From contig OX597814.1 in the NCBI GenBank assembly GCA_951406725.2, positions 67,704,001 to 67,768,000 on the forward strand: a stretch of DNA of 64,000 nt, read 5' to 3'. Both the position numbers and the translations under genes were made by a program. The notes beneath the pieces were generated by a model that worked only from the letters and a program-made list of their open reading frames with translations, made no database searches and was not told the origin of the DNA. Each line of letters begins with the position of its first letter. The stretch's first letter is position 1. Below, piece by piece: positions 5,801 to 64,000 of this stretch. Origin of the DNA: Octopus vulgaris. Lineage: Eukaryota.

Positions 5801-8800
5801 CTCCTATATGCTGACGACCTTGCTCTAATTGCTGAGTCACTATCAGAACTGGAGGAGAAGTTCCAGGTGTGGAAGGAGGGTCTAGAATCGAGGGGCCTCA
5901 GAGTCAACCTAGCTAAAACCAAAGTAGTAATAAGTAGGAAGGTAGACAATCCACAAATGTCTTCAGGAAGATGGTCCTGCTCGATCTGTAGAAAAGGTGT
6001 AGGTAGAAACTCTATAAGATGTACCCAGTGTAAGCTATGGACACATAAGAGGTGCAGCAATGTCAAAGGAAGGCTAACTGGGAAGATAGTTTTTGTATGT
6101 GGAAGATGCTTGGGAGCATTAACCTCTGAAAATCTGCAGAAAACAACTTCCGTCACTTTCCAGGGGAAAAAACTAGAAGTAGTTGATAGCTTCCGCTATC
6201 TTGGTGACCAAGTCAGTAGTGGGGGTAGGTGTGCTGAAAGTGTAACGGCTAGAGTAAGTATAGCCTGGGCAAAGTTTAGGGAGCTCTTACCTCTGCTGGT
6301 GACTAAAAGGCCTCTCGCTCAGAGTAAAAGGCAGACTATATGATGCATGTGTTCGAACAGCCATGCTACATGGCAGTGAAACATAGGCCGTGACTGCTGA
6401 GGACATGCGTAAGCTCGCGAGAAATGAAGCCAGTATGCTCCGATGGATGTGTAATGTCAGTGTGCATGCTCGACAGAGCGTTAGTACCCTGAGAGAAATG
6501 TTGGACCTAAGGAGCATCAGTTGTGGTGTACAAGAGAGACGATTGCGCTGGTATGGTCATGTGGCGAGAATGGATGAAGGTAGGTGTGTGAAAAAGTGCC
6601 AATCCCTAGCAGTGGAGGGAACCCGTGGAAGAGGTAGACCCAGGAAAACTTGGGACGAGGTGGTGAAGCACGACCTTCGAACTTTAGGTCTCACTGAGGA
6701 AATGACCAGCAACCGAGACCTTTGGAAATTTGCTGTGCGTGAAAAGACCAGGCAGGATAAGTGAGTCCAGCCCACTTATGCATGCCTTTCCTCCCTTGGA
6801 CACACAAAGACCTGTTGAGGCAAGCGAAGTCATTATCGAACCTCATTTGACGACAGGCACCTATGCCAACCCCACTTTGCTTGCGAAGACCTGTTGGGGC
6901 AAGTGAAATTGGAATCGAAATTGAACCAATCCTATGACTGGCACCCGGCAGATGCCAAGACCCCTGGACTGGAGATACGTAAAAAGCACTATCCGAATCG
7001 TGTCCGAAGCCAGTGCCGCCTCGACTGGCTTCCGTGCAGGTGGCACGTAAAATGCACCAATCCAACCGTGGCCAATGCCAGCCTCGCCTGGCACCAGTGC
7101 AGGTGGCATGTAAAAAGCACCCACTACACTCACGGAGTGGTTGGCGTTAGGAAGGGCATCCAGCTGTAGAAACATTGCCAGATAAGACCGGAGCCTGGTG
7201 CAGCCTTCTGGCTTCCCAGATCCCCAGTCGAACCGTCCAACCCATGCTAGCATGGAGAATGGACGTTAAACGATGATGATGATGATGATACATCTTGATT
7301 TTTAAAAAAAATTTATATTAGGCACCCTTACACAGACAAGATATTGTGTTTTGACTGCCACGTAAAAAGCACCCAGTACACTCAGTCAAATGGGAGAGCA
7401 TCCATCTGTAGAAAGCAAGCCAAAACAGACTATGGAACCCGGCGCAGTTCCTGCCAAGCTCTCCAACTAATGCCAGCATGGCAAACAGATGTTAAATGAT
7501 GGTGAGGTAGATAGATAATTGCCTACCTCTAACCATATGTCATTCACCTAACCCTCTTGCGAATTTATGTGATCCTATGTCCCTATACGTCTTATTTGTT
7601 TTTCTGTCCTCATCCCCTCACATTCACCTGTTTGTACATTGAAGGGATGCCCTGGCACCCAATCTCCATCTTCTCTTCTTTCCAGTGGGGGAAGTCATGT
7701 ATCTTTTCTATAACAAGAGACTTGTTTCTTTCTTTCTTTTAACTTATCACCTGGCACAAAACCACCTCCCTCAATACTACTCTCTACCTCAATCAAAGGG
7801 TTTTGTCTTGCATGCTACTTGGCAACCTTGCTAGTGCTGGTGATATGAAAAAGGCACCCAGGACACTCTGTAAAGTGGGTTGGCGTTAGGAAAGGCAGGT
7901 TTTTTCTGAGGCTGTCATAAATTTTTAAATTTTAAAATCAAGGGAAATTTTTCAAATTTGATATATTGATGTAATTTTTCACACTGAATCCGATTTTGTT
8001 ATTCATTTGTTCCATATAAATTTTAGAAAGATGATACAGAGGTTTAAAGTTTGATAAGTTTTACCCAATCAGAAAACAGGAATTGGAAGCTGGCATTTTC
8101 TATGTGACAGCTGTCTCTCACAAAATGAAAGCAAAAACATTATGTCAACAATGTATTAACACACAAAATGAAAGCGAAATCTTACAATGACAAAGAAGTT
8201 TAAGAGATTTTTTTATAAAGTTGAAGAAGCCCTTAGTAATGCAGAGATCGTTCTTCTAATTTTAAATGTATGACATTCACGCGTGTGTGTGTGTGTATGT
8301 ATCATCACCATCATCATTGTTTAACATATGCATTCCACGCTGGCATGAACTGGATGGTTTGATTGACTGGCAAGCCAAGAGGCTGCACCAGGCCCCAATC
8401 TGATCTGGCAAGGTCTCTACAGCTGGATGCTCTTCCTAACACCAACAACTCTGAGTGTAGTGGGTGCTTTTTACATGCCACCAGTACAGGCAATGACCAC
8501 GCTTAAATCGTGCTTATGTGCTACAGGCACGGGACCAGTCAGGCAGCACTGGCAACAACCATGCTTGAATGGTGCTTTTTACATACTGCCGACACAGTCC
8601 AGTGGGACTAGCATTTACCACACTCAAATGGTGCTTTTTACGTGCCACCAGCATCGGTGCCAGTTAGGCGGTACTAGCATCGGCCACAATAATATATGTC
8701 TATCTTATATATTAAAAGACAAGTTGTCCGTCTGTGTATTGTGTGAACCACTTCTACTCCCACAATTTTCAACCAAATTTCAAATTTGACATGTGTGCTC

Positions 8801-12900: not shown

Positions 12901-15900
12901 CATTTGGGCAGATAAAATATGAATTCTGTAGACGAGGTCAGAACAGTACTGGAGGAGTACTTTTTGTCACAGACAAATGAATTTTGGAAGATGGTCCTTG
13001 CAAGTCTACCAGATAGATAGAAGAGCACTGCAGAAAACGAAGGAGAGTATATTTTAGATTAAAATAAAACTTTGTTATCTTAATTTTGAAAAATAAAACA
13101 CATTATTTATGGGATGACCCAATATATCAGTATATAAGCTGAATCAGCTGTAGATAACTCAAAATTTCATAGGCATAGAAATGCACCTTACATTTTCAGA
13201 CACACAAAGTTAGAGTAAAGAGGATCTAAAGATGGTTTAGAGATGAGAACGTATGGTGGGCGTTTCATTGGTCTATTCAGATCACATGAATAAACAAATA
13301 AAATAGTAACAACAAATATTTATGTATGTGCTACCATGTGGTAGAGGAAATACTCTAGACGTGCCAGGTAGTTGATGACTTACAGTGAATCCTTGTTAAG
13401 GTAGCTAGCAGATAAAGTGAAAATCTAAGCCAAGAGTGTTGACTGTCATTGACGCAAGTGTTGTAGGGTGGTATGTTCTTAGTGTGCTAGGTGAGTGCTG
13501 CTCACCCACCAAAATTGACAAATTCATCATGATTAAGCTTACTCATAATAACATCAATAAAGCTAATTTTTCTATACCTTGTTGTAAAATATTGCAGCTA
13601 ACACTGAGCACTTCATAATTAAGTGTATATGTATTTGGCTAATGATAGCATAATGGAAAAGTATCAAACATAATACTGAAGATAGCAAGATTTTACATCG
13701 TTTATTATTCACTTTCACAAATCCTTCTAAGAAATGTAGCCTTTCTCCCTAGCACTTCACATTACCCCACTCATTAAGCTCTATCTGAATTCATTCACCC
13801 ACTCAACTCCTTGTTTTATGTATCTATATTCAGCTTGTTGCCTAACTTTTTCACTTGGTTTATGGCAGGGCTTTATAAGTGTTTAACTCTAGGTCCTGAG
13901 AAGCATCTAAGAAGTCAACTTTATGAGATTTGTAGGAACCGTGATTCTAAGCCTCCAGCCCATCAGGAATAACCGCAGAGATGCTTAAAATATTTGGCGG
14001 TGTCGGCTATAGTCTAGTCACCCGTATAGATGATAGATGAAGGAGTCATACCCAATGACTGGTGTAGCGGCACCATAGTCAACTGCTACAAAGGTAAAGG
14101 TGATGCATTAGATACAAATAATTACAGAGGTATCAAGTTGTTGGATCAGACAATGAAAGTCATGGAGAGGGTCATAGCCCAACTAATTAGGAAGATAGTC
14201 AGTTTAGACAAGATGCAGTTTGGGTTTGTACAAGGGAAAAGCACCGCTGATACTATATTTCTAGTAAGACAGCTGCAGGAGAAATACCTAGCCAAGAATA
14301 AACCTCTGTACCTGGCTTTCGTTGACATGGAGAAAGCCTTTGACAGGGTCCCTTGATCCCTTATCTGGTGGTCAATGCGGAAACTAGGGATAGATGAGTG
14401 ATTAGTGAGAGTCATGTACAGGGATGCTGTCAGTAAGGTGAGGGTTGGCAATGAGTACAGTGAAGAATTCCAGGTAGGGATCCACCAAGGATCAATCCTC
14501 AGCCCCCTCTTATTCATCATAGTCCTCCAGGCAATAACAGAGAAATTCAAGAGAGATTGCCTCTCAGAGCTTCTTTACGCTGATGTCCTCGCTCTAATAG
14601 CTGAGTCACTATCGGAACTAGCAAGGCCTAGAATCGAAGGGCCTTAGAGTCAATCTAGCAAAAACCAAAGTCTTGATAAGTAGGAAAGCAGACAAATCAC
14701 AAATCCCTTCAGGTAGAGGGCCCTGCTCGATCTGTAGAAAAGATGTAGGCAAAGACTCCATAAGATGTAGCTGGTGTAAGCTATAGACACATAAAAGGTG
14801 TGGCAATATCAAAGGAAGCTGAGAAGATAGTTTTTATGTGTGGCAAATGCTCAAAGGCAATAAACACTGAAGATGTACAGAAAACAGCTCCCGTCACATG
14901 CTAGCAGGGGAAACTAGAAGTAGTTGATAGCTTCCGTTACCTAGGTGACCAAGTCAGTAGTGGGGGGGGGGAATGCTCTGAGAGTGTAGCTGCTAGAATA
15001 AGAATAGCCTCTGAGAGAGCTTCCACCTCTGCTGGTGACAAAGGGCCCCACAGTCAGAGTAAAAGGTAGACTGTATGACGCATGTGTGCGAACAACCATG
15101 CTACATAGCAGTGAAACATGGGCCGTGACTGCTGAGGATATGCGTAAGCTTGCAAGGAATGAAGCGAGTTTGCTCCACTGGGCGTGTAATGTCAGTGTGT
15201 GTACACGACAGAGTGTAAGCACCCTGAGAGAAAAGTTGGACATAAGAAGCGTCAGATGTGGTATGCAAGAGAGACGACTGCACTAGTATGGTCATGTGTT
15301 GAGTATGGATGAGGACAGCTGTGTGAAAAAGTATCACACCCTAGCAGTAGAGGGAACTTGTAGAAGAAGACAGTACTGTCTGATTGGCACCCATGCTGGT
15401 GGCACATAAAAAGCACCATTCGAGCATGGTCGATGCCAGTGCCACCTGACTGGTCCCAAGCCGGTGACACATAAAAAGCACTATTGGAGCGTGGTTGTTG
15501 CCAGTGCTGGCTGACTGGTCCTGTGCCGATGGCACATAAAAAGCACCATTCAAACATGGTTGATGCCAGTACTACCTGACTGGCCCTCGTGCCAGTGGCA
15601 CGTAAAAAGCACCCACTACACTCTTAGAGTGGTTGGTGTTAGGAAGGGCATCTAGCTGTAGAAACTTTGCCAGATCAGATTGAAGCCTGGTGCAGCCATC
15701 TGGCTTACTAGCTCTCAGTCAAACCGTCAAGCCTATGCCAGCATGGAAAACAGATGTTAAACGACGATGATGATGATCAAGTGTATATATATTACAGCTG
15801 TAGGATATACCTAATCCGTCATCTCAATATAACTAATATCACAAGAAGAGAATTTAGTAAATGATTTGTCTAGCAAGGGATAACAAACAACTTTGACTTT

Positions 15901-18900
15901 TTTATCAACTGCATAAGCAACTTAGTTTGAAGGCATTTTCATGTCTTGCTTCTAGCATATTTTGTCTCTACAGGTTTCAGCTTAACTATCTTGCTGTCAG
16001 CTAACATCAACAGAGTGGATAATATTGAAATAAATTACCATAGAAAAAAAACAAAAAAAAACTCATTCACATTGTATAAACACAGAAAAGTTGTAACATC
16101 TACACATACCTTAAGATATATCATTAAATAAAACAAAAAAATCACAGAAAACTTGAAAATCCTCTTACCTGAGTGTTTTGTAAGGTTTTGTTGATAAATC
16201 TAAATCAAACCAACTCAAGTGACAGTCATAACTGCCAATAATAAGATTATCACCTGAAATTTAGAATAGATAAAAGAATAAGTAAAACTCATATCACTGA
16301 AAACACTAACAAAAAGAATTGTTTATTGAGCTTGTAGGAAATGCTTATTAATCCTTTTATAACCCAACAACCTATGTGTCAGCAAAATCTCAAATATGGC
16401 ATTACACAGAACAATCATTGCATATTTGATAAAGGTAACCTATGCTTAATAAAAGTAGACAATTTTGTCTCAGAAATACTTTCAGTCATTACCAAACACA
16501 GAAAAAGATGTTTAGAACATTATGATAAAAGGAAAAAACAAAACAAAAAGAATAACTGTCAAGACATGACACTTATTCCTTTTTGGTTTAGTCTACCTAG
16601 ATTTAACCCTTTAGTATTTCAATTGACCAGATCTGGCCAAAATATCCCTACCTGTTTTATATTCAAACTGACTAGATTCAGCATCTTACACCTACTATAC
16701 AATGTCATTCTAAAAATTTATACTCATATCATTGAAATCTCAAAGCAGTGAGACACTATATGATTAATTCAAACCAGTTTGAATAAATAAGCATGATGTT
16801 TGATAGGACAGAGTAATTTGAAAGCCAAAGGATTAAAATTTGACAAATTTCATAGGTCAGCAATGTCAATTCAATCCCTTTTTAAGAACTTTCTGTAGTT
16901 GACCATCATCCTAATGAAAGGAACATTTATCTCTTACCCAGTACTCAGATATCAGCACTTGCAATACAGAACATAGTAATTAACTAAGCCATTAGAAAAT
17001 TTAAGACAATGAAAATATCACATTCTAAACTCAAATGAAATAATATAGTCTCACTTATTTTACCTTGCTCTTGTGCTTGCATAAAGTAAATTATTCAAAA
17101 CACACACACATTCTCATTTTTTAGAAATTAGTTTAACATTCAGCAGAGCCACTCTCATAGATCATATTGCAATTAATGAGGTAAAAGTGATGAGAGATAT
17201 ATTAAGTGATTCTGTCTCAGATGAAAATGTATGATAATTACAAGTGTACACAAACTTTAACTTACAACAAGTCATGCATAAAAAACCAGTGAGAAGTTGA
17301 CCACTCACCCACCTATCCATCTATCTGTATATGTATCTTAGCATTTATCCACCACCAACAGCTTGACAACCAGTGTTGGTGTGTTTACATCCCCATAAAG
17401 AGACCAACAGAACAAGTACCAGATTAAAGAAATATACACATATGTAGAGGCATGGGTGTGTGGTAAGAAATTTGCTTCCCAACAGGGTTCTGGGTTCAGT
17501 CCCACTATGTGGGACCTTATGCAAGTGTCTTCTACTATAACCTCAGGCTAACTAAAGCTATGTGAGTGGATTTAACAGACAGAAAGTGAAAGACAGCTGA
17601 TATATATATATCAGAATCGAAATCGTTCAATGGAAATTGCAGATGTGTTACCAGTGCCGGTGGCATGTCGAAACTCTACTTGTGAAGACCTGTTGAGGCA
17701 AGTGAGGATCAGAATCGAAATCGATCAATGGAAATTGCAGATGTGTTACCAGTGCCGGTGGCATGTAAGAGAACCTTCCGTTTCGCGACCGTTGCCAGCA
17801 CCGCCCCGACTGGCCTCGTGCCGGTGGCACATAAAAAGCACCATCCGTTCGTGGCCGTTTGCCAGCTCTCTCTGGCACCTGTGCGGGTGGCACGTAAAAA
17901 GCACCCACTACACTCACGGAGTGGTTGGCATTAGGAAGGGCATCCAGCCATAGAAACACTGCCAGATTTGACTGGGCCTGATGAAGCCTTCTGGCTTCAC
18001 AGACCCCAGTAGAACCGTCCAACCCATGCTAGCATGGAAAACGGACGCTAAACGATGATGATGATGATGATGATGATATATATGCGCTTGGCTTAGATTT
18101 TCCTTTGGGGCTGGTCAGGTCGGAGCAATCTCAAAATTAATCAGCCGAAATTGCGACGATGATCCGGTTCTTGACTGAAGATTGAAGGCTTCGAATGTCC
18201 CGTCCGTGTTTTTTGTGTCGTCTTCTAAATGTTTCACGTTCTTGTCCCAGTTTGTATTTTTTCACTTTTACACATATATATATATGTTGTGTGTGTCTTT
18301 GTGTTTGTCTTCCACCACTGCTTAACAACTGGTGTTGGTGTGTTTACACCCCCATAACCTTGCAGTTCTCCAAAAGTGACCACTGAAATAAGTACCAGGC
18401 TTACAAAAGAAAATTAGTACTGGGGTCAATTCATTCAACTGAAAAATTCTTCAAGGGTGGTGCCCTAGCATGGCTGCAGTATAATGACCAAAACATAAAA
18501 GAAAAGATAATACGTTTGAACACAAGTCCAGCCTATCAGACGTTGAGAGATGAAGAAAGTGCAGAGGAGGGAGAGAAAAAAATTAAATAAAGATGAAAGA
18601 AAAATTTTGAAATATAAATGGTGAAAGAATGTAAAAAAATAGGTACAAGCTAGAATTTTAAAGGAGTTAATTTTTGCAAGGGGAATTGTTTTTAGTACAT
18701 GTAATCAGGCACTGACCTCCTGGATGAAGTGCAATACTAGAGACCCACTTAACATTGGTCATCAGTTTCTTCACCATTTCTTGTTTCAACAGGTTATATA
18801 TCCTCACATAGCGTTGAGTCTACAAAAGATAAGAAGAATAACAACATTCACTAAAGAAATTTGGTAAGGCATCAGGCCAAATGAAGGAAAACTACTCCAA

Positions 18901-24900: not shown

Positions 24901-27900
24901 CAAGGTCCTGCCTGTTTAAAACACTTGATTTAAGATATGGATTAATAAATATTCTACCTTTAAACTAATTCAAACAACTCATCAGATAATTAACTCCATT
25001 CTCTGATTAAAATCACTATTCTCTTCTATTTCTTGCATTACAGGGCCTTTGGGTCTAATAAATAAAAAAATAAACCAGTACTGTAGTTTAGTATAACTAA
25101 AAAAAATGCTACCCATACCAAAAATATACTCCAAAATTCCTAACAAAGGAAGAAACTGACAGTAATGATGCTCCAGTTGGAGGAGAAATTATTCTTCATT
25201 ATTTCTAATGATTTTATTTTTCTATTGACTGAGGATTAATACTTTAAAATAAAGAAAGAAATCTTACACAACAGCAACTAAAAGACATAGTGATGGGTTT
25301 GGGTTCCAAGCAATACTCTTAACTGTGCCTTCAACAGAAATTGTCTTGAAGCAGCGGCCTGTTGATACTTCCCAAATTTTGATAGTGCAATCATCAGAAC
25401 CTATCATAAATAAATAAAAAAATAAATAAATGCATAGGTTGTGAGTGTGTATGTGTTTATATATATATATGTATATATGTAAAATCTGGAAGCTTAAGGA
25501 TCCTCTGAATGGACAAAGCTTTAGAGATATATTACTTGAAGCTTTTGACAAAAAAGAGGAGGATATAGCATCATATAACATGGAGGACAACTGGAGATTC
25601 CTACTGGACAATCTGTTGAGGGCTACTGACCAGATATATGGCTGGTGCAAAGTCTCTTCTCAACCTATGGTGACATGGTAGTGGAACAATGTAGTTGACA
25701 GGGCCATTAGGGGAAAGAAACAGACACAAAAGGACTGGAAGCATGGTGGTAGCAGAGAACTGTATCAGATTACCAGAAGGGAAGCTAGGAGACAGGTTTA
25801 CTTAGCCAGAGGGGAAGCAGATAAGAAGAAATTTGCCAATGCTCTGTGTTGTGAGGGCCAGAGACTTGACGTGTTTTCATATGCAAGACAGTGTGAGAGA
25901 GAAAATTGTGATGTCATAGGAGAGCAATGTGTCAGCATGGATGACGGCTCACTAGCATTTAAGGATGCTGCAAAGAGAGAGACTTGGAGATGCCACTATG
26001 AAAAGTTGCTAAATGAAGAGAATGAATGGGAGAAAGAGAGTCTGCTGAATGCCGACCCAGCTATCCAAATTGACAGTATCTTGGTAGATAAAAGCAATTA
26101 AGGATATGAAGACAGGAAAAGCCCCCAGCACATCAAGAATCACTGCTGAGATGCTAAAAAGATCTGGCAGTGTAGGCTATAGTCTAGTCACCTGTATAGC
26201 TAACCTGGAGATACACGAAGAAGTCATACCAAATGACTGGTGTAGCAGCACCATAGTCAACTACTACAAAGGTAAAGGTGACACCTTAGATAGAAATTAC
26301 AGAGTTATCAAATTGTTGGATCAGGTGATGAAAGTCGCAGAGAGGGTCATAGCCCAACTAATTAGGATGAGAGTTAGTTTAGATGAGATGTTGTTTGGGT
26401 ACGTGCTAGGGAGAAGCACCACTGATACTATATTTCTGATAAGACAGCTGCAGGAGAAATACCTAGACAAAGATAAACCCCTGTACTTGGCTTTTGTTAA
26501 TATGGAGAAAGCCTTTGACAGAGTCCCCTGATCCCTTATCTGGTGGTCAATGCGGAAACTAGGGATAGGTGAGTGGTTGGTGAGAGCTGTACAAGCCATG
26601 TAGAGGGATGCTGTCAGTAAGGTGAAGGTTGGCAATGAGTATAGCGAAGAATTCAGGATAGAAGTAGGGGTTCATCAAGGATCAGTCCTCAGCCCACGCT
26701 TGTTCATCATAGTCCTCCAGGCAATAACAAAGGAATTCAAGACAGGCTGCCCCTGGGAGCTCCTCTATGCTGATGACCTTGCTCTAATAGCTGAGTCACT
26801 ACCAGAACTAGAGAAGTAGTTTCGGGGGTGGAAGCAAGGTCTAGAATCGAAGGCCCTTAGAGTTAACCTAGCAGAAACCAAAGTCTTAGTAAGTAGGAAG
26901 GCAGACAAATCACAAATCCCTTCAGGTAGATGGCCCTGCTCAATCTGTAGAAAAGGAGTAGGTAGAAACTCTATAAGATGTACCCAGTGTAAGCTATGAA
27001 CACATAAGAGCAATATCAAAGGAAGGTTACCTGGGAAGATTGTTTTTGTGTGTGGAAGATGCACAGGTGCAAGAAACACCGAAAATGTACAGAAAACAGA
27101 TCCCATTACAAGCCAAGGGAAAAACTAGAAGTAGTTGATAGCTTCCGTTACCTAGGTGACCAAGTCAGTAGCGGGGGTGGATGCTCTGAGAGCATAGCTG
27201 CTAGAATAAAAATGGGCTGGCAAAGTTCAGAGAGCTCCTACATCTGCTAGTAACAAAGGGCCTAAGTAAACTGTATTATGCCTGTGTGCAAACAGCCATA
27301 CTAGACAGCAGTGAAATATGGGCTATAGCTGCTGAGGATATGAGTAGGCTTGAAAAAAAAATGAAGCTAGTATAATCTGCTGGATGTGTAATGTCAGTGT
27401 GCATGCATGACAAAGTGTAAGCATCCTGAGAGAAAAGTTGGACATAAGAAGCAATCATATGTGGTGTGCAAGAGAGATGACTACGCTGGTTTGGTCATGT
27501 GATGCTTATGGATGAGGATAGCTATGTGAAGAAGTGTCATACCCTAACAGTGGAGGGAAACTGTGGAAGAGGTTGACCCAGAAAGACATGGGATGAGGTG
27601 GTGAAGCACAAACTTCAAACATTGGGCCTCACAGAGGCAATGACAAGCAGTCGAGACCTTTGGAAACATGAGAAGTCCCAGCAAGCCAAGTGAGATAAGC
27701 CGATGCCGGTGTTGCATAACTGGCCTGTTTAAAAGCACCCTTCAATTGTCGGGTGATATGCTGTACTTGTGAAGACTTATTGAACCAAGTGAAATCATAG
27801 TTGTGGCTGATGCCAGTGTGGGTTGACTGGCACCTGAGCTGGTGGCACATAAAGAGCACCATTCAAGCATGGCCAATACTAGTGGCACATAAAAAAGCAC

Positions 27901-52231: not shown

Positions 52232-52591
52232 ATGATGGATATGGAATTCTCTCAGATATTCCGAGATCAAGAATCTGATGAAATTAGTCTTGAGACCTCT
52301 GTTCCAACGGACACATTTTCTCCAGAAAGGGAACATGTGAACCGGCGCAGTTCGCGAAGAATTAAAGATACCAAATCTAATGCCGCTGGAAGAGATATTC
52401 TTGAGAAAAAGCAGCTACTTCATGACCTCCAGCTTCACAAGATAGAGTCATCGCAAAAAGGAATTGCCATTGATAACCTAAAGATACAACATATGCAACG
52501 AACAGAAGAATTAGAAGAGAAGCTGAATGAAGCTCTTTACCAAAAGCAAATTCTCCAAACTCGTTTGGAATCTGAAATCCGAATACAACAG
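52232..52591 (+). CDS. PIBF1: Progesterone-induced blocking factor 1 (CEP90), first coding exon
   Basis: ESDEISLETSVPTD...EKKQLLHDLQLHKIESSQK..IDNLK...EELEEKLNEALYQKQIL matches the PIBF1 N-terminus; CAG|GTTAAT donor, phase 0. Confidence 0.92.
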
Positions 52592-53233: not shown

Positions 53234-54220
53234 TTTCCATACTTGTGTATATGTTAACTTGTGCTGTTCGCATGTAGAGTAGCATTCTCGTAGTGAAGAA
53301 AATTTAGATATTTAAAAAGTAAATAAAAATTAAAGGGGAGATAATCAACTTACTGTTAAACAACGATGACACTGAATGTAACAACCAAAAAGTGAACAAA
53401 TGTCATTCTCTTCAGTACAGAATTCCTCCATATAAATATAACACGAACAAATTATCTGACGTTCCAAATTTTCTTTTAACATGCATCCACTTCATCTATT
53501 CTTAACACTTTATCACATAAAGCGAAACAGGTAAACATTTGTACATTCAATTTGTCGCAGTACGCATAAAATTCATGAGGCTTGTTCTTGACGAAAATTT
53601 AATATAAAGAATTTCAGATGATATTCTTTAAAATGAAGCTACATGCCATTTAGAGACAATGCTTAATAATCAATAACTCAATCTAATTGGCTAAACTGGC
53701 AAAATGACCATTCCGAAATATAACAATATCAATCTAATTGAATATATATATATATAATATTAGGGAGTAAACTCCAAACTTACAGGGAAAAATTTATATT
53801 AAATCAAATTTCACAATATCTATATATATAAAACTCACCTTGTGTGTGTGTCTGTGTGTTTAACTTTCCGGCCCATCTCCTCCTAGCCAACAAAGCGTAG
53901 AACCACCAAAAATGGGTCACTTAAAGTTTAGGCGAATGAAAATTGAACTGCGCTATTTCTGTTCCGAAATCCATCTCGCAAGGGTAAAAATCGATAATGT
54001 GTTTGTTTAAGCCTTATCCCATGCATTGAATAGTGAACTTTACTCAGTCAGCTGTTTGACGTGAACTGTTCACCACGCGTGCAAGCATGCGTAAATTGCA
54101 TGAAAAATAAAAAATCAAGATATAAAAACGAATCGCTGTAAACATTGTAGAAATTCGGCAAAGAAATTAATTTTCGGTATGTAGCCTGGAGGGTTTTTTT
54201 GTATTAATATATATATATAA

Positions 54221-54425
54221 CTTACTAAGTTACGGTGTTATATTAGTTATCAATAATGATTATTCCCTCTGATTTTTCAAACCTATATTCTAGCTCATAC
54301 GATTAACAGAACCTCTTACTAAGTTACGGTGTTATATTAGTTATCAATAATGATTATTCCCTCTGATTTTTCAAACCTATTTTCTAGCTCATACGATTAA
54401 CAGAACCTCTTACTAAGTTACGGTG
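54221..54425. repeat. 94-bp tandem repeat (2.2 copies) at the RTE 5' junction
   Basis: CTTACTAAGTTACGGTG starts at 54221, 54315 and 54409. Confidence 0.9.
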
Positions 54426-57400
54426 AACCCGCCCTCCCACCCCCTCCACACATGCCGGAAGTTCCTATTCTTTGCCATCCCGGGGTTGCTTCCCATGAAG
54501 ACTGCAAATGCTCTTTCACCATCCCTACCCCTAGTCTCGACCTATGTAAGGTAATGTTCATACAGTGCAAAATATGAAAGGCTAGTGTTATGCAGGTTGT
54601 ACTGAGGGCTACTTTACTACTTCATTACTTGCACATGAATTCTGCCAAATGCGAGCTTTCTTTTCAGGTACATGAAGCTACTGTCCACCGTCCCAGGGTC
54701 TCTAGAGCCCATGCCTCCCACACCCTCAGGGTTGGCACCCTCAACGTTGGCACACTGAAAGGTAGGTCTGGTGAGATAGTCGAGATGCTTGAACGGAGAT
54801 GTGTAGATATATGTTGCATGCAAGAAATAAGGTGGAGAGGAGGATCAGCTAGGTTCCTCACAGGCAAGGAACGCAGGTACAAGATTTTCTGGGCAGGGAA
54901 CACTGACGGGGTTGGTGGCATGGGTATACTTATCGCTGAGAAATGGTAGATAAAGTAATTGAGGTAATCAGAGTATGTGACAGAATACTTAAGATTAGAT
55001 TAGTGCTTCGTCATAGTTTAGCAACCATTATATCAGCCTATGCTCCTCAGTCGGGGCTACCCGATGGACAGAAAGACCAATTCTATGACACTCTACTGCA
55101 GACTACCTCGTTGACGAACGACAGAGACCTTCTCTTTGTGGCTGGTGACTTCAATGGTCACGTTGGACGACATGCTGGGGGCTTCCATGGCGTACATGGA
55201 GGCTATGGCTATGGCTCCCGCAACGAGGAGGGAACCAGGCTGCTGGAGTTCTGCGATGCAAATAATCTTATGATTTGCAACACTAACTTCAGGAAACCTA
55301 CCAGCCACCTAGTCACTTACCGATCGGGCCAACATACCAGCCAAATTGACTACATCCTTGCAAGGCAAAGGGAGAGATGGCTGCTTATAAATGCCAAAAC
55401 CTTCCCAGGCGAAGAATGTACCCCACAACATAGACTGGTAGTTAGTGACTTTAGGATCAGGACTAGGAGGACAACCAGAAGACGACCAATATGGAGAAGA
55501 AGGATCTGGAAGCTTAAAGATCCTGCAAATGGACAGAGATTTAGGGACATATTACTTGAAGCCTTTGAAGAAGTAGAAGGGGATAGAGCATCACAGGGGG
55601 TAGAAGACAACTGGACGTTTCTAAGGGACAACCTGCTGAGAGCCACTGACCAGATCTGTGGCTGGTGCAAAGTCCCCTCTCGACCTAGAATAACGTGGTG
55701 GTGGAACAATATTGTAGACAGGGCTATTAGAGAAAAGAGACAGGCTTGGAAGGTCTGGAAAAATGGGGGTAGCAGGGAATTGTATCAGACTGCCAAAAGA
55801 GAAGCTAGGAGACAGGTTTATTTAGCCAGAGGGGAAGCAGATAAGAAAAAATTTGCTAATGTTCTGCGCCGTGAGGACCAAAGACTGGAGGTGTTTCGCG
55901 TTGCAAGACAGTGTGTGAGAGAGAATCGTGATGTGGTAGGAGAGAAGTGTGTTCGCATGGAAGATGGTTCACTTGCGCTAAATGAGGATGCAAAGAGAGA
56001 GGTTTGGAGATGCCACTATGAAAGGTTGCTGAATAAAGAAAATGAATGGGATAAAGAGAGTCTGCCGAATGTTGACCCAACAGAGGGACCAGCTATCCGA
56101 GTTGATAGTTCCGTGGCAATTAGAAGCATGAAGACAGGGAAAGCCCCAGGCCCATCAGGAATTACTGCAGAGATGCTCAAAATGTCTGGTAGTGTCGGCT
56201 ATAGCCTAGTCACCCGTATAGTTAATCAGGTGATACACAAAGGAGTCATACCCAATGACTGGTGTAGCAGCATAATAGTCAACTGCTACAAAGGTAAAGG
56301 TGACGCCCTAGATACAAATAACTACAGAGGTATCAAGCTGTTGGATCAGGTGATGACGGTTACGGAGAGGGTCATTGCCCAACTAATTAGAGAGAGAGTT
56401 AGTTTAGATGAGATGCAGTTTGTGTTTGTGCCAGGGAAAAGTACTACTGATGCTATATTCCTGGTAAGGCAGCTGCAGGAGAAATACCTAGCCAAAGATA
56501 AGCCCCTGTACCTGGCTTTTGTTGACATGGAGAAAGCCTTCGACAGGGTCCCCCAATCCCTTATCTGGTGGTCAATGAGGAAACTAGGGATAGATGAATG
56601 GTTAGTGAGAGCTGTGCGGGCCATGTATAGGGACGCTGCTAGTAAGGTGAGGGTTGGCAACGAGTACAGTGAAGAATTCCGTGTAGAAGTAGGGGTCCAC
56701 CAAGGCTGTCCTCAGCCCCCTCTTATTTATCATAGTCCTCCAGGCAATAACAGAGGAATTCAAGACAGGATGCCCTTGGGAGCTCCTCTATGCTGATGAC
56801 CTTGCTCTAATTGCTGAGTCGCTATCAGAACTGGAAGAGAAGTTTCAGGTGTGGAAACAAGGATTAGAATCGAAGGGCCTCAGAGTCAATCTAGCTAAAA
56901 CCAAAGTCGTAATCAGTAGGAAGGTAGACAAATCACAAACGCCTTCAGGTAGATGGCCCTGCTCGATCTGTAGAAAAGGTGTAGGTAGAAACTCTATAAG
57001 ATGCACCAAGTATAAGCTATGGACACATAAGAGGTGCAGCAATGTCAAAGGAAGGCTAACTAGGAAGATGGTTTTTGTATGTGGCAGATGCTCAGGAACA
57101 ATAAACACTGAAAATGCTCTGAGACCAACTTCCGTCACTTTCCAGGGAGAAAAACTAGAAATAGTTGATAGTTTCCGTTACCTAGGTGACCAAGTCAGCA
57201 GCGGGGGCAGGTGTGCTGAAAGTGTAACTGCTAGAGTAAGAATAGCTTGGGCAAAGTTCAGAGAGCTCTTACCTCTGCTGGTGGCAAAAGGCCTCTCGCA
57301 CAGAGTGAAAGGCAGACTGTATGATGCATGTGTACGAACAGCCATGCTACATGGCAGTGAAACATGGGCCGTGACTGCTGAGGATATGCGTAAGCTCGCA

Positions 57401-58274
57401 AGAAATGAAGCCAGTATGCTCCGATGGATGTGTAATGTCAGTACTCATACTCGGCAGAGTGTAAGTACCTTGAGAGAAAAGCTAGACCTAAGAAGCATCA
57501 GTTGTGGTGTGCAAGAGAGACGTTTGCGCTGGTATGGTCAAGTGGCGAGAATGGATGAAGATAGTTGTGTGAAAAAGTGCTACACCCTAGCGGTTGAGGG
57601 AACCTGCAGAAGAGGCAGACCCAGGAAAACCTGGGACGAGGTGGTGAAGCACGACCTTCGAACTTTAGGTCTCACTGAGGAAATGACTAGAGACCGAGAC
57701 CTCTGGAAGTGTGCTGTGCGCGAGAAGACCCGGCAGGACAAGTGAGTCCATAACCCGTGGCCTTCTACATGGGATGGAGCCAGCCTACGTATGCATACCT
57801 TCCCTTCTTGAGACACAAAACTCTACTTGTGAAGACCTGTTGAGGCAAGTGAGGATCAGAATTGAAATCGATCAATGGAAATTGCAGATGTGTTACCAGT
57901 GCCGGTGGCATGTAAGAGAACCTTCCGTTTCACGACCGTTGCCAGTGCCGCCCCGACTGGCCTCGTGCCGGTGGCACGTAAAAAGCACCATCCGTTCGTG
58001 TCCGTTGCCAGCCTCGCCTGGCCCCCGTGCCGGTGGCACATAAAAAGCACCATCCATTCGTGGCCGTTTGCCAGCTCTGTCTGGCACCTGTGCGGGTGGC
58101 ACGTAAAAAGCATCCACTACACACACGGAGTGGTTGGCGTTAGGAAGGGCATCAAGCTGTAGAAACACTGCCAGATTTGACTGGGCCTGATGAAGCCTTC
58201 TGGCTTCACAGACCCCAGTAGAACCATCCAACCCATGCTAGCATGGAAAACGGATGCTAAACGATGATGATGAT
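54426..58274 (+). mobile_element. RTE-clade LINE, near full length, in the PIBF1 intron; about two frameshifts
   Basis: ORF pieces 54590-54949, 54943-56796 and 56849-57745 ([27 protein letters not shown]); (GAT)n tail; flanked by (TA)n. Confidence 0.95.
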
Positions 58275-58555
58275 ATATATATGAGAGTATGGTAGAAGAA
58301 GGCTAACTCTTCCTTCCATAGAAGAAAAAATTCAAATCGGACCATGTTAACACCAAAAATTATTTACATCAAAAAGGTGCCTTTTTTCTATGAAAATCCC
58401 TATTTTTTTATGATGTTTTGACTGCTGTGTCGCCATTTTTCGGTGTATTTCACTTAAAGAGAATAACAAGCTACATACTGCCAAATTTTTACTTTTCAAA
58501 AATTCCAATTCTAAAGGGTCTAAACAAACCACAACGCCGGGCGATACTGCTAGTA

Positions 58556-59218
58556 AATATATAAAATATAAATTAGAGATAAAACCAATGTTATGCAATT
58601 CAAACAATGGTAGACATAAACCAAAACATGAATAACAAATAAAATATATTTTCATAAAACATATAACTAGATCACAAAAAGTATAAAAATGAATAATCAA
58701 TATATAATAAGTAATTATATATTATATATATTACTTATTATATATTTACTTATTACTTATATATTGATTATTAATTTTTATACTTTTTGTGATCTAGTTT
58801 TATGAAATATAGTTTATTTGTTATTTATGTTTTGGTTTATGTTGGACACAGCGTGAGACAACTGTTGTTATCGCTAGGCCTAGCTCATCGTAAAGTCAAT
58901 ACCAGCATGACTGATATCCAATCTACAGTGGAGAAGGCTAGCCACTGGATTTGGTTAAAAAGAGACGATGAGCGATGGCTAGAAGGATATAACCAGCTGA
59001 TCTAACAATCGGGGCCTCATATCAGTGAGGGGGGCTGGTGCGCATTGATGCCGTCGAGAGGTAGGCCCCGAAATGGCGTGCATTCTCTCCTGATGACCCC
59101 ATACACTTGCTGGCTTCCGGTATATGGAGCTTTGGACTGGTAGCACTTGCATGTGCAAGTTGTTTGCAAGACATCTATCATTGTTGTTTGAATTGCATAA
59201 TAGTGGTTTTATCTCCAA

Positions 59219-59232
<14 letters not shown>
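58556..59232. repeat. AT-rich foldback/palindromic element; right arm split by the HERO-like fragment
   Basis: 58556-58720 is the reverse complement of ~58728-58842 plus 59174-59232. Confidence 0.8.
58843..59173 (+). mobile_element. 3' fragment of an RLE-type non-LTR retrotransposon (HERO-like)
   Basis: ORF end VGHSVRQLLLSLG...VEKASHWIWLKRDDERW resembles the C-terminus after the RLE domain of HERO-clade LINEs; structured 3'UTR; splits a foldback arm. Confidence 0.65.
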
Positions 59233-59265
<33 letters not shown>

Positions 59266-60119
59266 GAAGAGAAAGACATTTGTTCACTTTTTGGTTGCTA
59301 TATCCAGTGTCTACAGTGTTACTTATTTATCTCCCCTTGTTATTTCCCTTTAATTTTTATTTACTTCTTTAAAACTCCCATACTGACTTATTTTCAATTT
59401 TACAATTTTACAAAAACATTCCTTCAGGTTTTCTTACCATTTATCGTAGAACGATCGTGATTCATTTTTTTTTTTTTTTGTTAATCTGAATGATAACTGA
59501 GTACCTACAACTTTTTGTTGTCTACGTGTTAATATTGATATATTAATTAAAAAAATTATTCTGTGAAAGGCAAATTGGGACAAGATTTGAACTCAATGGG
59601 TCGATGTTCCCATTTCTTGGGATTAAATAAGTTGCATAATTGTTGATGAAATTTTGAACATAATGGCATTCCTTACCCAACTATGCATATGAGACATTCT
59701 GCTTTTCTAATAGTGAGCTGCAGTAGATCATCATCATCATCATACGTCCGTTTTCCACACTGGCATGTGTTGGACGCCATGACAGGAACTGCCAATGCCA
59801 GGGGCTGCACTAGGTTCAATAGTCCTATTTTGGATTGGTTTCTATGGTTGGATGCCCTTTCTAACACCAACCACTCCACAATGTACTGGAACCAGCACCC
59901 AAACCAATGCTATTTATGTGGTGAGCTGATCTTTTCGAGTACACCAATGCATCACATATCTTGGTCCTCTGTTGTTTCCTTCATAAGGTTCAGGAAATAT
60001 TTGTGTGTGTGTGTATGTATTATGCAAAGGTTGTTTTGATCGTATTGCAAAAGAAGGCATAGTAACTTTTCTCCCTGCTTTTCTTCATTAGACACATAAT
60101 GGTTTCATAGCAAAAGCAA

Positions 60120-61010
60120 TGTGTTGGAGGGGTGCAGGTTGTCTGACATACAGAAAATTAGAAATTGTTTACAGAGATGAAACCAGTGCACAGATAGATA
60201 AAGAAGGAGAAATGACCTATGCTGTGAGAGGCCATCAACTGCAACAACTCACAGGAATCACCAGCAATTAGACAAATTGATTCATACAGAAAGGTATTTT
60301 ACAATTTGTGAGGTTGCTGTATGACTGAACTGTTGTTACAGTGTATTACAGAAGAGGTGGAAGACTTTAGGTATCAGAAGATATGTGAAAAGTGGGTACT
60401 CCAGTTTACACCCAATTTGAAGAAGAGCAATCTTCTGTGAGGATTTGGAGCAAATGAAGACGTGTTACTTTTTTTATCTAATGACAGAAATGAAATATGG
60501 GCATGTCTTTATGATCTAGAAATGAAGGCTCAATCTGTGAAATAACATCACACTTCTCAAAAGCCTAAGTGGTTCAAGAATCAGCAATTAGTCAAAGTGA
60601 CTGTTAGTTAGGGATTACAAGGGGATCATTCTCTTTGACTTTCTGGAATGTGGCTGTACCATAAGCTTCAAACAATGTGTTGAGAGAAGCTAAGAGAAGG
60701 CATTAGGATGGTGCAGGGCCAAAAAGAAATCTGAAAGCTATCTACATTCACTGTGACAATGTGTGACCACACACATCTTTGGCAACAAATTAAGTAATCG
60801 ATAAATTGGACTGGTCACTGGACCCCATTCATCATACAACTTGAATCTGGTATCCTCTAGCTTTCACCTGTTCTGTCCATTGAAGGACAGTCTTCAGAGA
60901 GAATGATTTGATGACACAAATGAAGTGCAACTGGTGAAGAAGTGAGAACAACAGTGCATTACTAAAGTTTTTCAAAGAATATTCAGGAGCTTATGATGGA
61001 GACTATACCT
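60120..61010 (+). pseudogene. Highly decayed mariner transposase
   Basis: Degenerate KWV, DNV*PH and YN.NL..SSFHLF motifs in the expected order; ends unclear. Confidence 0.6.
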
Positions 61011-61229
61011 TTGTAATAAAGGAAAAAATACTCCACCAACATGGGCAATTTGAATGACCTGTAGAAATTAAATAAAGATGTTATGCCCACACATACACAT
61101 GAGAGTATTACTGAACAGCAGTGCATGTCATTGCTGATAACAGTAAATGGTCATTAAAAAATTGATGAAAATATAAATTCTAAAATATACCTTTTTGTTT
61201 ATTTTGATTAAGTATTCGGATAATATAAA

Positions 61230-62800
61230 TGTTAAGAAAGTTTAACATTGAGAAACTTCAGTGTACACTATTTTGTACTTACTAACAGGAAAAAGAATCT
61301 ACTTCCTATCCTGTTGGTTGAATAATAGCTCACAAACTACTAATTTCTTATTGGCACTCAACAAACAGCAAGACCAATATGTCATAAATCAAATAGTATC
61401 ACTGCATTAGCCCTTCCCACATTTCTGAAAAAGCTGTAATTTGGAAGATTAGGAAGGATCAACAAAAGATAGTGAGAAAGGAGAGTTGACACAAAAATCT
61501 CTTACTAGAATTAGAGTACCTATAGAAAAACGGTTGGTTGATGATGTGATTTTACTGGTCATTAGAGTAGAAGGCTGGATAATTAATGTGTTGATGTTAC
61601 TTAACAATAGTGGCTCAGGAATGATTGGTTGAGAAAAAAACTGTAGAATTTGTTGGTTGAGGTACTGTGGCTAGATTGCTCTCCAAATATGCTGGCTTCA
61701 GATGGTTGTTATTAACAGTCTCTTATTCACCATGTATATCAAGAGTGATATGCTTGGAACTCATGGGCAACACTTTGAATAGTTCTATATTAGGTGTGTG
61801 TAGTGATTTTTTTTTTATTATCTTTGTAAACAGAAATGTGGACATTTGGAGAGGTCTTGTAGGACTCATGCTCTGGTTTGCTGTGAGTTCACATAATCTT
61901 TGAACATAGTTTAATAAGTTATGATTAAAGTTTAACACTGAGAAGCTTCAATATGCACAATTTTCTACATACTAAAAGAAAAATAAATGTCTACTTATTT
62001 TGTTAGTAGAATAAGACTTCACAGACTATTAGTCTTCAATTGGCTAACTTACACAGTAAAACCAATATATCAAAGGATGAATGATGTCATAACAGAGCCT
62101 CTTCTTAGATTGTTGAGAAAGCAGCAATCACTAAAAGGTCTACTGTAGATAGTAAAAAGAGAAGTGGGTGCAACCATTTCTCCAGGTAGTTATTTGATGT
62201 TGTTATCTAATAGGAGTTCAAATAGGGGTATATCTAAATCTCTCCTTTACTGTGCAGCATAGACCCAGATATATAAGGAGAGCATGCTCATTCGGGATCA
62301 GCTTAGGTTTTCAGTGCTGACTTCAGTTGGTGAAAGAAATGTTCCATTTTATTGTTAGATAGTAAGTAGTAAGCAACAGTATGATTTTGATTGCATCCTA
62401 GTGATCATGTTAGATAGATTTTAACTATCATCCTCTATCAGTTGTGATGGTTGATGGTGTACTGTATTTGGAAATCCTGTGCTAAATAAAATCCTTAGTA
62501 ATCAGCTAGTAAGTAGTAGCATAGCATCTGACTATCTGGTATACTTGTTGATACAACCAAACAGGTCTGTGTCCATATGAAAGAGGAAGTGGTTCTGTGA
62601 GATCAACATATATGCTCAAATTTTGCATCTATTGAAGCAAAAATACCTAACAGTGCCTCAAAATGCTGTAGTATCTTTGCTTCCTCACATGTGATGCTTT
62701 TCCTGACCTACTCTGGAATATCTTTGTTGATACTTGTCCGGATGAAACATGCTGATATCAATTTCCAAGTAGGTAGTATTGATAGTGTGAAACCAACAAC
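61230..62800 (-). pseudogene. Ty3/Gypsy integrase debris (two partly duplicated segments)
   Basis: Degenerate SINKDI, FEH..VDL..PLP and PSTITTDRG on the - strand; 61241 and 61931 begin similar segments. Confidence 0.55.
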
Positions 62801-63015
62801 AGATTGCAGTGAAAACAATGCAATAGTATCTTTCAGGTACAACAGAAAATTTGTGACCAGTAGGTACATCATAGCAAAAATTATCCTAATTACTAAATTT
62901 TTTTCTAAATACTTTCTACTAAGAAGAGCATGTATTTCTGATTTTCTTTGTTCCAAACTTTTAGATGGATAGAAATGTCTAGAAAGTCACAAATATTTTA
63001 AACTGTCTCTTTTAA

Positions 63016-63079
<64 letters not shown>

Positions 63080-63080
63080 A
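63016..63080. repeat. (TC)n(AC)n microsatellite; others include (GA)n 2058-2098 and (TA)n 9376-9410, 9904-9944, 59227-59263
   Basis: Read directly from the sequence. Confidence 0.95.
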
Positions 63081-63699
63081 ATAGTGCTTTGAAGTTATGA
63101 ATTTTGCAAGTGAACAATACATATAAATAATCAGTATGACCTTGGGTATGATAGCTAAAATAAATGGAAGAACTAAGTCTCTTGTTAACCACAGCCACCT
63201 TGAACTGGTCTCAGTTGCTATGGCTATCTGGTGTTTTTCTTCTGTTGTTTGGGTTTCAAACCAATCTTCTGCATAAAATAGTGCACCAATCTTGTTAGGA
63301 AACCATGGCGGGTGAATTCAATAATGAACAAAGTGGTATGAAATCCTTTGACAAGAGCCTTGCTGATCAAGTCTTGATATCCAGCTTTCCTCAATTAGTG
63401 AGAGATGTGAAATCTGTTGTCACAAAACACTATGACTTTAGCCAAGATGGATCGTTTTTGTGCTCCTAAATAAATGAAACTTGTGAGGGTATAGGAAAGT
63501 TATATCTAAGAGCATTGTCCATCATAGGTAAAGCCATATAAGAACAAGACACATGAAAAAGATAAAGTTGTGTTTATTCAGCCATGTGGAAAAATGTTCA
63601 AAGGCTGTTAATGATGGTGGTAGTAGTTGTCATCTGTTAAAATAAGCTGTTGAAATTATATTTTGATTCAAACTGTTTTTGTTTTTTTTATCTTTTCAG

Positions 63700-64000
63700 G
63701 AAGAATTCAAGCATTATCAAGATTCTATGAAGAAAGAGCTAGAAGATGTTGTCAAGAAGCAGCATCAACTAGAATCATCAAATGCTATATTACAAGATAA
63801 AGCATGTGATGTGAAAAATAGTCTGCTGAATTTGGACCTCAGTGAACAAGAATACTATGAACTACGAAGCCAGAAGGAGGAAGACTGGTCTTTACGAGAA
63901 TATGTTAGCATTAAACTTTATGAAAAACTTTTTCCTCTACAAAATGAAGTGAAAACATTGAAGTCAGAAACTATCAGTTCTGAAAGAGAGATAAAAACTT
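63700..64000 (+). CDS. PIBF1: PIBF1 second coding exon (runs off the window)
   Basis: Polypyrimidine tract plus CAG; EEFKHYQDSMKKELEDVVKKQHQLE...SLREYVSIKLYE continues the PIBF1 coiled coil in phase. Confidence 0.9.

Follow-up and report, generated by a model that had tools for sequence, protein, structure and literature searches.

HERO-like LINEs almost certainly share a conserved hammerhead fold in their 3′ untranslated regions (UTRs), as judged from sequence comparison across the clade. The predicted fold is a circular permutation of the type SGC hammerhead, opened at A9/G10.1. It occurs in two repeat families of the window, by which we mean the whole 64,000-nucleotide stretch of Octopus vulgaris DNA analysed here (Table 1): family A, a HERO-like LINE with a restriction-like endonuclease (RLE), and family B, a non-coding repeat unrelated to it in sequence.

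Table 1. Features of the window discussed in the text. The octopus PIBF1 protein (P0121) served as the reference for exon assignment.
Feature	Positions	Strand	Remarks
Family B copy, 5′-truncated, sequence-unrelated non-coding repeat	18082..18285	+	same ribozyme, K-turn type
PIBF1 coding exon 5′ of the motif	52232..52591	+	98% identity, P0121 residues 1-120
HERO-like RLE LINE copy (family A), 5′-truncated, 338 bp	58840..59177	+	~55 terminal endonuclease-region codons and 3′ UTR
Permuted hammerhead (predicted)	59011..59100	+	IV5′-H-II5′-V5′-III-C17-I-II3′-GAAA-III′-V3′-I′-CUGAUGA-IV3′
Helix IV 5′ strand	59011..59014	+	partner 59097-59100; closes ribozyme
Hairpin H (6 bp, 4-nt loop) between IV and II	59015..59030	+	completes four-way junction
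Helix II 5′ strand (G10.1 = 59031)	59031..59036	+	partner 59064-59069
Helix V 5′ strand	59037..59043	+	partner 59078-59084; counterpart of the type SGC I-II bracing helix
Block S: helix III strand, C17, helix I strand	59050..59060	+	C17 = 59055, predicted cleavage on its 3′ side
Block G: helix II 3′ strand, G12 A13 A14 A15.1, helix III strand	59064..59077	+	
Block C minus its helix II strand: helix I strand and CUGAUGA	59085..59096	+	
Remaining 3′ UTR to insertion end	59101..59177	+	without poly(A)
Following PIBF1 coding exon	63697..63999	+	98% identity, P0121 residues 120-220

As an earlier sequence-only reading of the window had proposed, the motif lies in sense orientation within an intron of PIBF1, between the two exons of Table 1, and in the 3′ UTR of an RLE/HERO-like LINE: positions 58840-59177 match the 3′ end of a 3737-bp RT+RLE unit (L065) at 91.7% identity. 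Family A is young and large, with 2293 first-look candidates and 325 exact copies of its 47-nt core in the genome (G000). Compared with 58 copies, the window copy carries C-to-T changes at 59036, 59074 and 59079, which turn G-C pairs of the family into G.U pairs in helices II, III and V. Folded alone and without pseudoknots it is unexceptional (z 0.61 and 1.19), and an Rfam search of window positions 54000-62000 and seven homologous loci returned no ribozyme match, only sub-threshold simple-repeat matches. This lone intronic copy is most likely an inert by-product. The same intron also holds a frameshifted APE+RT LINE (RTE-like by Pfam; 54578-57745, + strand), with similar pieces near 5800-6700, 14900-15100, 26800-27300 and 36600; the CUGAUGA in its 3′ region, at 58187 (likewise at 17978), falls outside the motif descriptor. 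At 63012-63317 (− strand) lies a degraded RLE-like C-terminus, after which the 3′ UTR motif is absent.

The full L065 unit contains a single ORF of 1175 codons (a 1175-aa frame) with a reverse transcriptase domain (RVT_1, E 5.7e-19, Pfam), and its translation shows an N-terminal C2HC-type zinc finger, a CCHC knuckle and a C-terminal PD..E..K endonuclease. One ORF with RT, a CCHC knuckle and a C-terminal restriction-like endonuclease is the HERO-type architecture, and the HERO clade LINEs (HEROTn; Zebulon) likewise have a single ORF with RT and C-terminal RLE. The top protein relatives come from fish, lancelet and lamprey, and the element's protein is 39% identical to the Tetraodon polyprotein AAN12398.1, which we take to be Zebulon/HEROTn; Zebulon was reportedly described as tandem by Bouneau in 2003. 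From the range of these relatives we regard the element as HERO-like. In the accessible text of PMC9004415 the host range of the Hero clade is the same (fish, lancelet and lamprey), and the CCHC knuckle is used as defined in the accessible part of PMC5678591. No report of a ribozyme in HERO elements was found in the literature searched, which comprised openly readable papers. The 5′ UTRs of these elements hold, clade-wide, three to five GGAAAGAC-like 8-mers at a spacing of ~20 nt (1.9 per kb vs 0.11 in ORFs), as at L065 5095-5210 and after the ribozyme in L141, L151, L155, L156, L159, L179, L181, L182, L186 and L188; the array is possibly a protein-binding, promoter or translation element.

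All 13 strands named in the sequence-only reading are present at the positions it gave, and its helices I (59056-60/59085-89), II (59031-36/59064-69), III (59050-54/59073-77) and V (59037-43/59078-84) are correct, as is its core; the descriptor never matched shuffled sequence. Helix IV had to be redrawn. The strands proposed for it (59025-30/59097-102) include an A.C mismatch, are paired in 45% of cells and form a complete helix in 4 of 51 homologues, whereas the upstream partner that replaces them is paired at 80-98% per position in the same homologues. The energies agree: the nested subset with the proposed helix IV reaches -13.9 kcal/mol, against -23.0 for 59011-14/59097-100 plus the hairpin at 59015-30. 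The earlier view of a complete core opened at A9/G10.1 was thus right about the position of the junction and wrong about the strands that form helix IV. In most members A9 leads into helix IV, helix IV into hairpin H and H into G10.1 without unpaired bases, and the opening would form a perfect four-way junction inside the hammerhead core. The family majority prolongs helix IV by an 8-bp stem, which in the window copy is weakened at 59005 and 59009.

In family A an 8-bp helix (59010-59017/59063-59070) competes with II, IV and H, and could represent an off-state of the ribozyme or a competing fold. An HDV-like reading that starts from this helix (59010-17/59063-70) was rejected: it leads into no HDV core, and the helix is not shared by relatives in general. 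Reading CUGAUGA as a box C/D element was likewise set aside, since position 7 varies as it does in hammerheads.

Conservation of the fold was assessed in a metagenome scan that returned 79 relatives with 28-60% protein identity. Four of these loci lack the C-terminus (75 reach it) and nine have less than 150 nt after it, leaving 66 usable loci. Under a relaxed descriptor 56 of the 66 show the motif, as does no reverse strand. The ten misses are five decayed copies whose motif can still be recognised and five loci (four of them non-redundant: L166/L175, L185, L194 and L197) in which it is absent after the ORF stop; these relatives may carry another ribozyme or structure. A strict descriptor matches 39 of the 79 real loci and none of the 79 reverse strands. 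It found nothing in 5000 dinucleotide shuffles of window positions 58951-59130, in 8000 shuffled homologous segments, or in 1,307,360 bases of shuffled loci, so that the proposed strand order stands clear of what shuffled sequence produces. Its sole other match in the window (18175) belongs to family B.

The core is near-invariant and all six helices covary, as expected had the motif been conserved in the way the sequence-only reading supposed. We tallied 51 rows (49 metagenome loci and the two window copies), leaving out near-duplicates, truncated and motif-less loci and a few decayed ones. C3 is kept in 50 rows, U4 in 51, G5 in 51, A6 in 50, G8 in 50 and A9 in 51; G12 in 48, A13 to A15.1 in 51 and U16.1 in 48, with the U16.1-A15.1 pair formed in 48 of 51. 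Position 7 is free (U 32, C 11, A 6, G 2), position 17 is C in 23, U in 16, A in 11 and G in one (non-G in 50 of 51), and the 10.1-11.1 pair is G-C in 42 rows and G.U in 5 (47 of 51 together). These are the marks of a hammerhead: a CUGANGA plus GAAA core with variable N7, U16.1-A15.1, H (not G) at 17 and a 10.1-11.1 pair, with helices I, II and III in register with the core and backed by covariation. Cleavage would very probably occur 3′ of C17 by the standard G12/G8 chemistry. The sites with U17 (16 of 51) and G17 (1 of 51) weigh against this, as these bases are slower or inactive in other hammerheads.

When its register is set from helix III alone, helix I is 84-96% paired, compared with 34-45% for slid partners; with the register set from IV and II alone, the positions of hairpin H are 92, 84, 80, 88 and 78% paired, compared with 30-42% slid. 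The helix II 5′ and helix IV 5′ strands were placed by complementarity, and their pairing percentages in the 51-row tally are inflated for that reason. In a structure-blind MAFFT alignment of the 51 rows, 86.0% of cells are paired, vs 59.7 +/- 0.9 after shuffling (0/500 shuffles), and covariation is 0.580 vs 0.177; both sides change in 30 of 33 pairs; slid partners pair in only 32-44%. Helices I, II and III are 91-97% paired in the sequence-only alignment, and helix V 90-91%. On a protein tree of 47 of the 51 rows, partner columns change together in 83% of events, where non-partners reach 37% (95th percentile 60%). Support is lowest for hairpin H, with co-change of 0.54-0.73, near the upper tail of the null.

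Two older HERO-like families in the same genome also have the fold. The 3′ UTRs of these families (L269-L293) are very close to those of metagenome loci L145/L153 and L193, which belong to other branches of the protein tree; horizontal transfer is a possible explanation. Among viral contigs, two protein and three pattern matches yielded no fold at threshold (best L247, 20 vs 28), and a narrow search found none outside HERO-like LINEs and family B.

This pattern of conservation bears on whether the fold cleaves at all. It might instead be a recognition element for the element's own RT protein, cleaving rarely or never and keeping the core for its shape, much like the structured 3′ UTR of R2. 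In two unrelated families the fold does lie ~120 nt 5′ of the priming site, it is always intact in inserts, and the K-turns that many members contain are protein-binding motifs. Conservation that is catalytic in character (G5, G8, G12, A9 and U16.1-A15.1 fixed, N7 free) and the exclusion of G from position 17 in 50 of 51 rows speak against such a role, which we consider improbable.

The order of the blocks is S-G-C, which is not that of the three-way junctions of types I, II and III (CGS, GSC and SCG). The sequence-only reading was correct that the motif fits none of these types; the order is less unprecedented than it claimed, S-G-C having been published as type SGC. According to the accessible parts of PMC10085705 (Eckert et al., 2023) and its supplement, natural type SGC hammerheads consist of blocks S, G and C with a ~3-nt linker from I to II and a helix bracing I and II, have not turned up in the genomes of known organisms, and, as type SGC / HRIMA-1, cleave at 0.007-0.19 per min. 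The S-G-C order, the short linker, which has 3 nt in the window copy and 2-6 nt in most relatives, the bracing helix and the core are all shared by the fold described here. By our reading of the oligonucleotides given there, helix III of SGC-1 also runs directly into the bracing helix, and at A9/G10.1, where the chain opens in our motif, both SGC-1 and SGC-2 contain an additional U (PMC10085705).

The differences from type SGC lie in block C. In the accessible text that block is assumed to be uninterruptible, and the descriptors require helix II right after CUGAUGA(U)G (PMC10085705). Here the helix II 5′ strand follows CUGANGA directly in 1 of 51 rows (0 nt) and after 1 nt in 4 of 51, and a canonical SGC helix II was rejected; the II 5′ strand is found upstream. 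The II 5′ and bracing strands precede block S, and helix IV and hairpin H close the opening. Judged on strand order, what is new relative to SGC is solely the move of the II 5′ and V 5′ strands to the front. Since the wiring is SGC-like and block C is interrupted, the fold would work like SGC without being a member of the type as defined. It also differs in being genomic, in residing in animal LINEs and in often having the K-turn pattern.

No prior description of the complete wiring order was found in the literature searched. A pseudoknot-containing hammerhead (Zhan et al., 2024; PMC11300833) shares the pseudoknotted helix II, an extra helix between I and II and the G8/G12 core, but in that fold, described there along with the pistol ribozyme, an A-minor strand spans the extra helix, which is stacked on the pseudoknot; the accessible text notes neither a link to helix III nor a four-way junction at A9/G10.1. 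Only small insertions into the hammerhead core are listed in the part of PMC3088659 available to us.

Helices V and III form one hairpin, which pseudoknot-free folding recovers, and the loop of this hairpin must pair with both of its flanks. Helix V would thereby connect the distal end of III with those of I and II, which is geometrically tight, and in family A the III/V joint has no linker on one strand. In a kink-turn two helices are separated by a 3-nt bulge and, after it, tandem GA/AG pairs. This pattern occurs at the III/V joint in 34 of 51 rows, compared with 1, 3, 0 and 10 for control bulges of 1, 2, 4 and 5 nt. Family B has the K-turn, whereas family A in the window has a 6-nt bulge instead.

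The sequence-only reading drew from the same strain that the motif works as a domain-swapped dimer or oligomer with concentration-dependent cleavage, a state that could serve either a circular or an uncleaved template. Penelope minimal hammerheads reportedly cleave as dimers, and the tight hairpin loop and the missing linker in family A point the same way. Minimal dimeric hammerheads of the Penelope type have type I order and a very short helix that forces dimer pairing; dimerising minimal hammerheads do not have helices of full length. Here there are six helices, and helices I and II are of full length (5-6 bp), while the K-turn pattern sits exactly at the joint where a monomer needs a sharp bend. 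The authors of the SGC study note geometric strain like that seen here, and SGC-1 and SGC-2 cleave almost completely during transcription; a concentration test for SGC-1 is not noted in the accessible text (PMC10085705). We regard the dimer as unlikely and, by analogy, cleavage within one molecule (cis) as probable. The loop of hairpin H is palindromic (UGAUCA or UGGCCA) in L139, L141, L145, L152, L153, L178, L205 and L211, a possible kissing or protein-binding site that bears on the dimer question.

Family B carries the same fold in a unit of ~720-850 bp with 3233 exact 25-mer copies and a longest ATG frame of 108 codons. By blastn it resembles neither family A nor the metagenome loci, and a search for an autonomous partner similar to it found none, with only two incidental matches in older-family loci. 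Members have a 13-bp helix IV and a K-turn, and end ~147 nt past C17 before TA repeats; in the window copy C17 is 18130, the core is 18175-81 and the IV 5′ strand is missing. As in family A, insertions form partial-plus-full tandems (L224, L237). The L237 insertion comprises four full units and one 5′-truncated unit (4.4 units), and its five ribozyme regions differ at 0-2 positions from one another and at 9-27 from other insertions.

Non-coding tandem units that each contain a hammerhead are what defines non-LTR retrozymes, except that these have a type I hammerhead and the fold of family B is permuted and SGC-like. In the accessible parts of PMC7229834, PMC6765202 and bioRxiv 10.64898/2026.07.22.740005, Penelope-like elements and non-LTR retrozymes share with the present families a hammerhead in every unit, tandem inserts and non-coding partners. 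They differ in having type I hammerheads and, as partner, a Penelope RT with GIY-YIG, where the partner here is an RLE LINE; retrozyme units are also shorter (~170-400 nt). Family B is likely a retrozyme-type passenger that would depend on HERO elements, a partnership suggested by the shared fold and architecture.

The sequence-only reading had further proposed that the ribozyme processes the 3′ end of the element RNA. The inserts contradict this, in that they keep the whole ribozyme and extend beyond it. The 83 distinct terminal 3′ ends of family A are staggered over a zone 118-126 nt beyond C17, carry no poly(A), and stop 2-10 nt into a short sequence which, wherever copies are in tandem, leads on into the 5′ UTR; the window copy ends 6 nt into this 10-nt sequence. 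The 13 distinct head-to-tail junction sequences differ solely by substitutions, and none of the 325 exact 47-nt cores has a scar at the cleavage site. Among 33 distinct insertions retrieved via the 5′ UTR, the 5′ end lies inside the 5′ UTR in 5, between the cleavage site and the UTR junction in 7, and upstream of the cleavage site, by up to ~2 kb, in 21; thus 21 of the 28 junction-spanning copies read through the upstream cleavage site, and none of the 33 ends falls within 10 nt of that site or of the junction. Additionally, a new ORF start follows the ribozyme in 12 of the 39 metagenome loci with enough downstream sequence. With staggered 3′ ends, templated junctions and 5′ ends that ignore the landmarks, the template behaves as a continuous repeat that is primed internally.

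Target-site duplications are clear in 3 of 49 copies (17-25 nt, outside TA repeats) and most copies have none by this crude test. Pieces of families A and B lie head-to-head or inverted in L244, L245, L233 and L072, in a twin-priming-like arrangement. Contigs from runs guessed to be RNA cover 30 of 30 bins of L065, and two of them span the UTR junction; as contigs cannot show ends or circles, none of this is counted as evidence.

Tandem inserts could also form if the RT jumped between linear RNAs, with the ribozyme trimming one end only, and the R2 RT is said to continue across separate templates. Such jumps should leave ragged junctions, and the UTR junction and cleavage site are colinear in all copies seen; we hold this origin to be very improbable. 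A more serious contender, though still on the unlikely side, is an active ribozyme whose template is the uncleaved read-through RNA of a tandem locus, with cleavage serving to free a translatable unit with a 5′-OH from an upstream copy or host transcript, as HDV-like ribozymes do for R2, and with no circle. This accords with tandem loci, templated junctions and read-through of the site, and with statements in the accessible parts of several sources: SGC cleavage is slow (0.007-0.19 per min; PMC10085705), self-cleavage alone is reported to permit cap-independent translation (PMC13725137), and uncleaved oligomers have been proposed likewise for Penelope elements (PMC6765202). It is harder to reconcile with 5′-truncated copying, which would shorten the upstream unit at each round, so that length must be regained; with 4.4 near-identical units, which need an equally long master; and with family B, which, being non-coding, has nothing to translate. 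The HDV-like ribozymes of R2, L1Tc, RTE and Baggins are a precedent for a self-cleaving ribozyme in a LINE, including the RLE-type R2, but in the accessible text they define the 5′ end, whereas the fold here is in the 3′ UTR and no insert end coincides with it (PMC6765202).

We favour, at about even confidence, cleavage followed by circularisation and then by rolling-circle reverse transcription primed within the template. RNA from a locus that holds two ribozymes (a partial plus a full unit) would be cut twice, yielding a monomer of unit length with 5′-OH and 2′,3′-cyclic-phosphate ends. Either a host RtcB-type ligase or the ribozyme would join these ends into a circle, aided by helices IV, II, V and III, which would clamp the two cleavage products; halves joined by four helices should favour ligation. 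The RT/RLE protein would then nick AT-rich DNA and prime at a fixed site inside the circle, and copying once round or more would leave a full unit behind a 5′-truncated one, so that a source locus with two ribozymes arises again. Precedents appear in the available parts of the sources: circular RNAs are shown for retrozymes, whose circles are ligated far better by RtcB than by self-ligation in vitro (PMC7229834), and a tandem/hammerhead model exists for Penelope (PMC6765202; bioRxiv 10.64898/2026.07.22.740005).

Some observations count against circles. L166/L175 and L185 have 5′-UTR-like sequence after the ORF and lack the motif, and tandem structure is therefore possible without the ribozyme. 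The copies of family A are also too uniform: in its youngest subfamily differences within insertions are not below those between insertions, and a uniform tandem master locus fits equally well. In 13 tandem family-A insertions the upstream and downstream units differ mainly by a G-run and private changes. Unequal exchange, too, can lengthen arrays at a later stage.

The fold adds a further natural hammerhead wiring and breaks the published assumption that CUGANGA and helix II are inseparable. Within the literature searched, no other non-circularly permuted hammerhead has been linked to a known genetic element of animal genomes, which would make this one the first. Because Rfam and published descriptors miss it, thousands of copies per genome go unannotated. 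Taken together, we tentatively suggest, at slightly less than even confidence, that the RNAs of HERO LINEs, in hosts ranging from molluscs to fish, lack fixed ends and travel as circles, which the RT would copy by rolling-circle TPRT from an internal priming site. The circles would be made by a ribozyme of new topology, with a core four-way junction and the K-turn as a strut, and a new class of HERO-dependent retrozymes would have hijacked this ribozyme as its signal for mobilisation. The usual assumption is that LINE RNAs are linear and that priming occurs at their 3′ end. A circular, internally primed template, if true, would explain the tandem structure of the clade and join RLE LINEs to the lifestyle of Penelope elements and retrozymes, and a LINE RT that copies circles processively would be relevant to tools for RNA-templated gene insertion.
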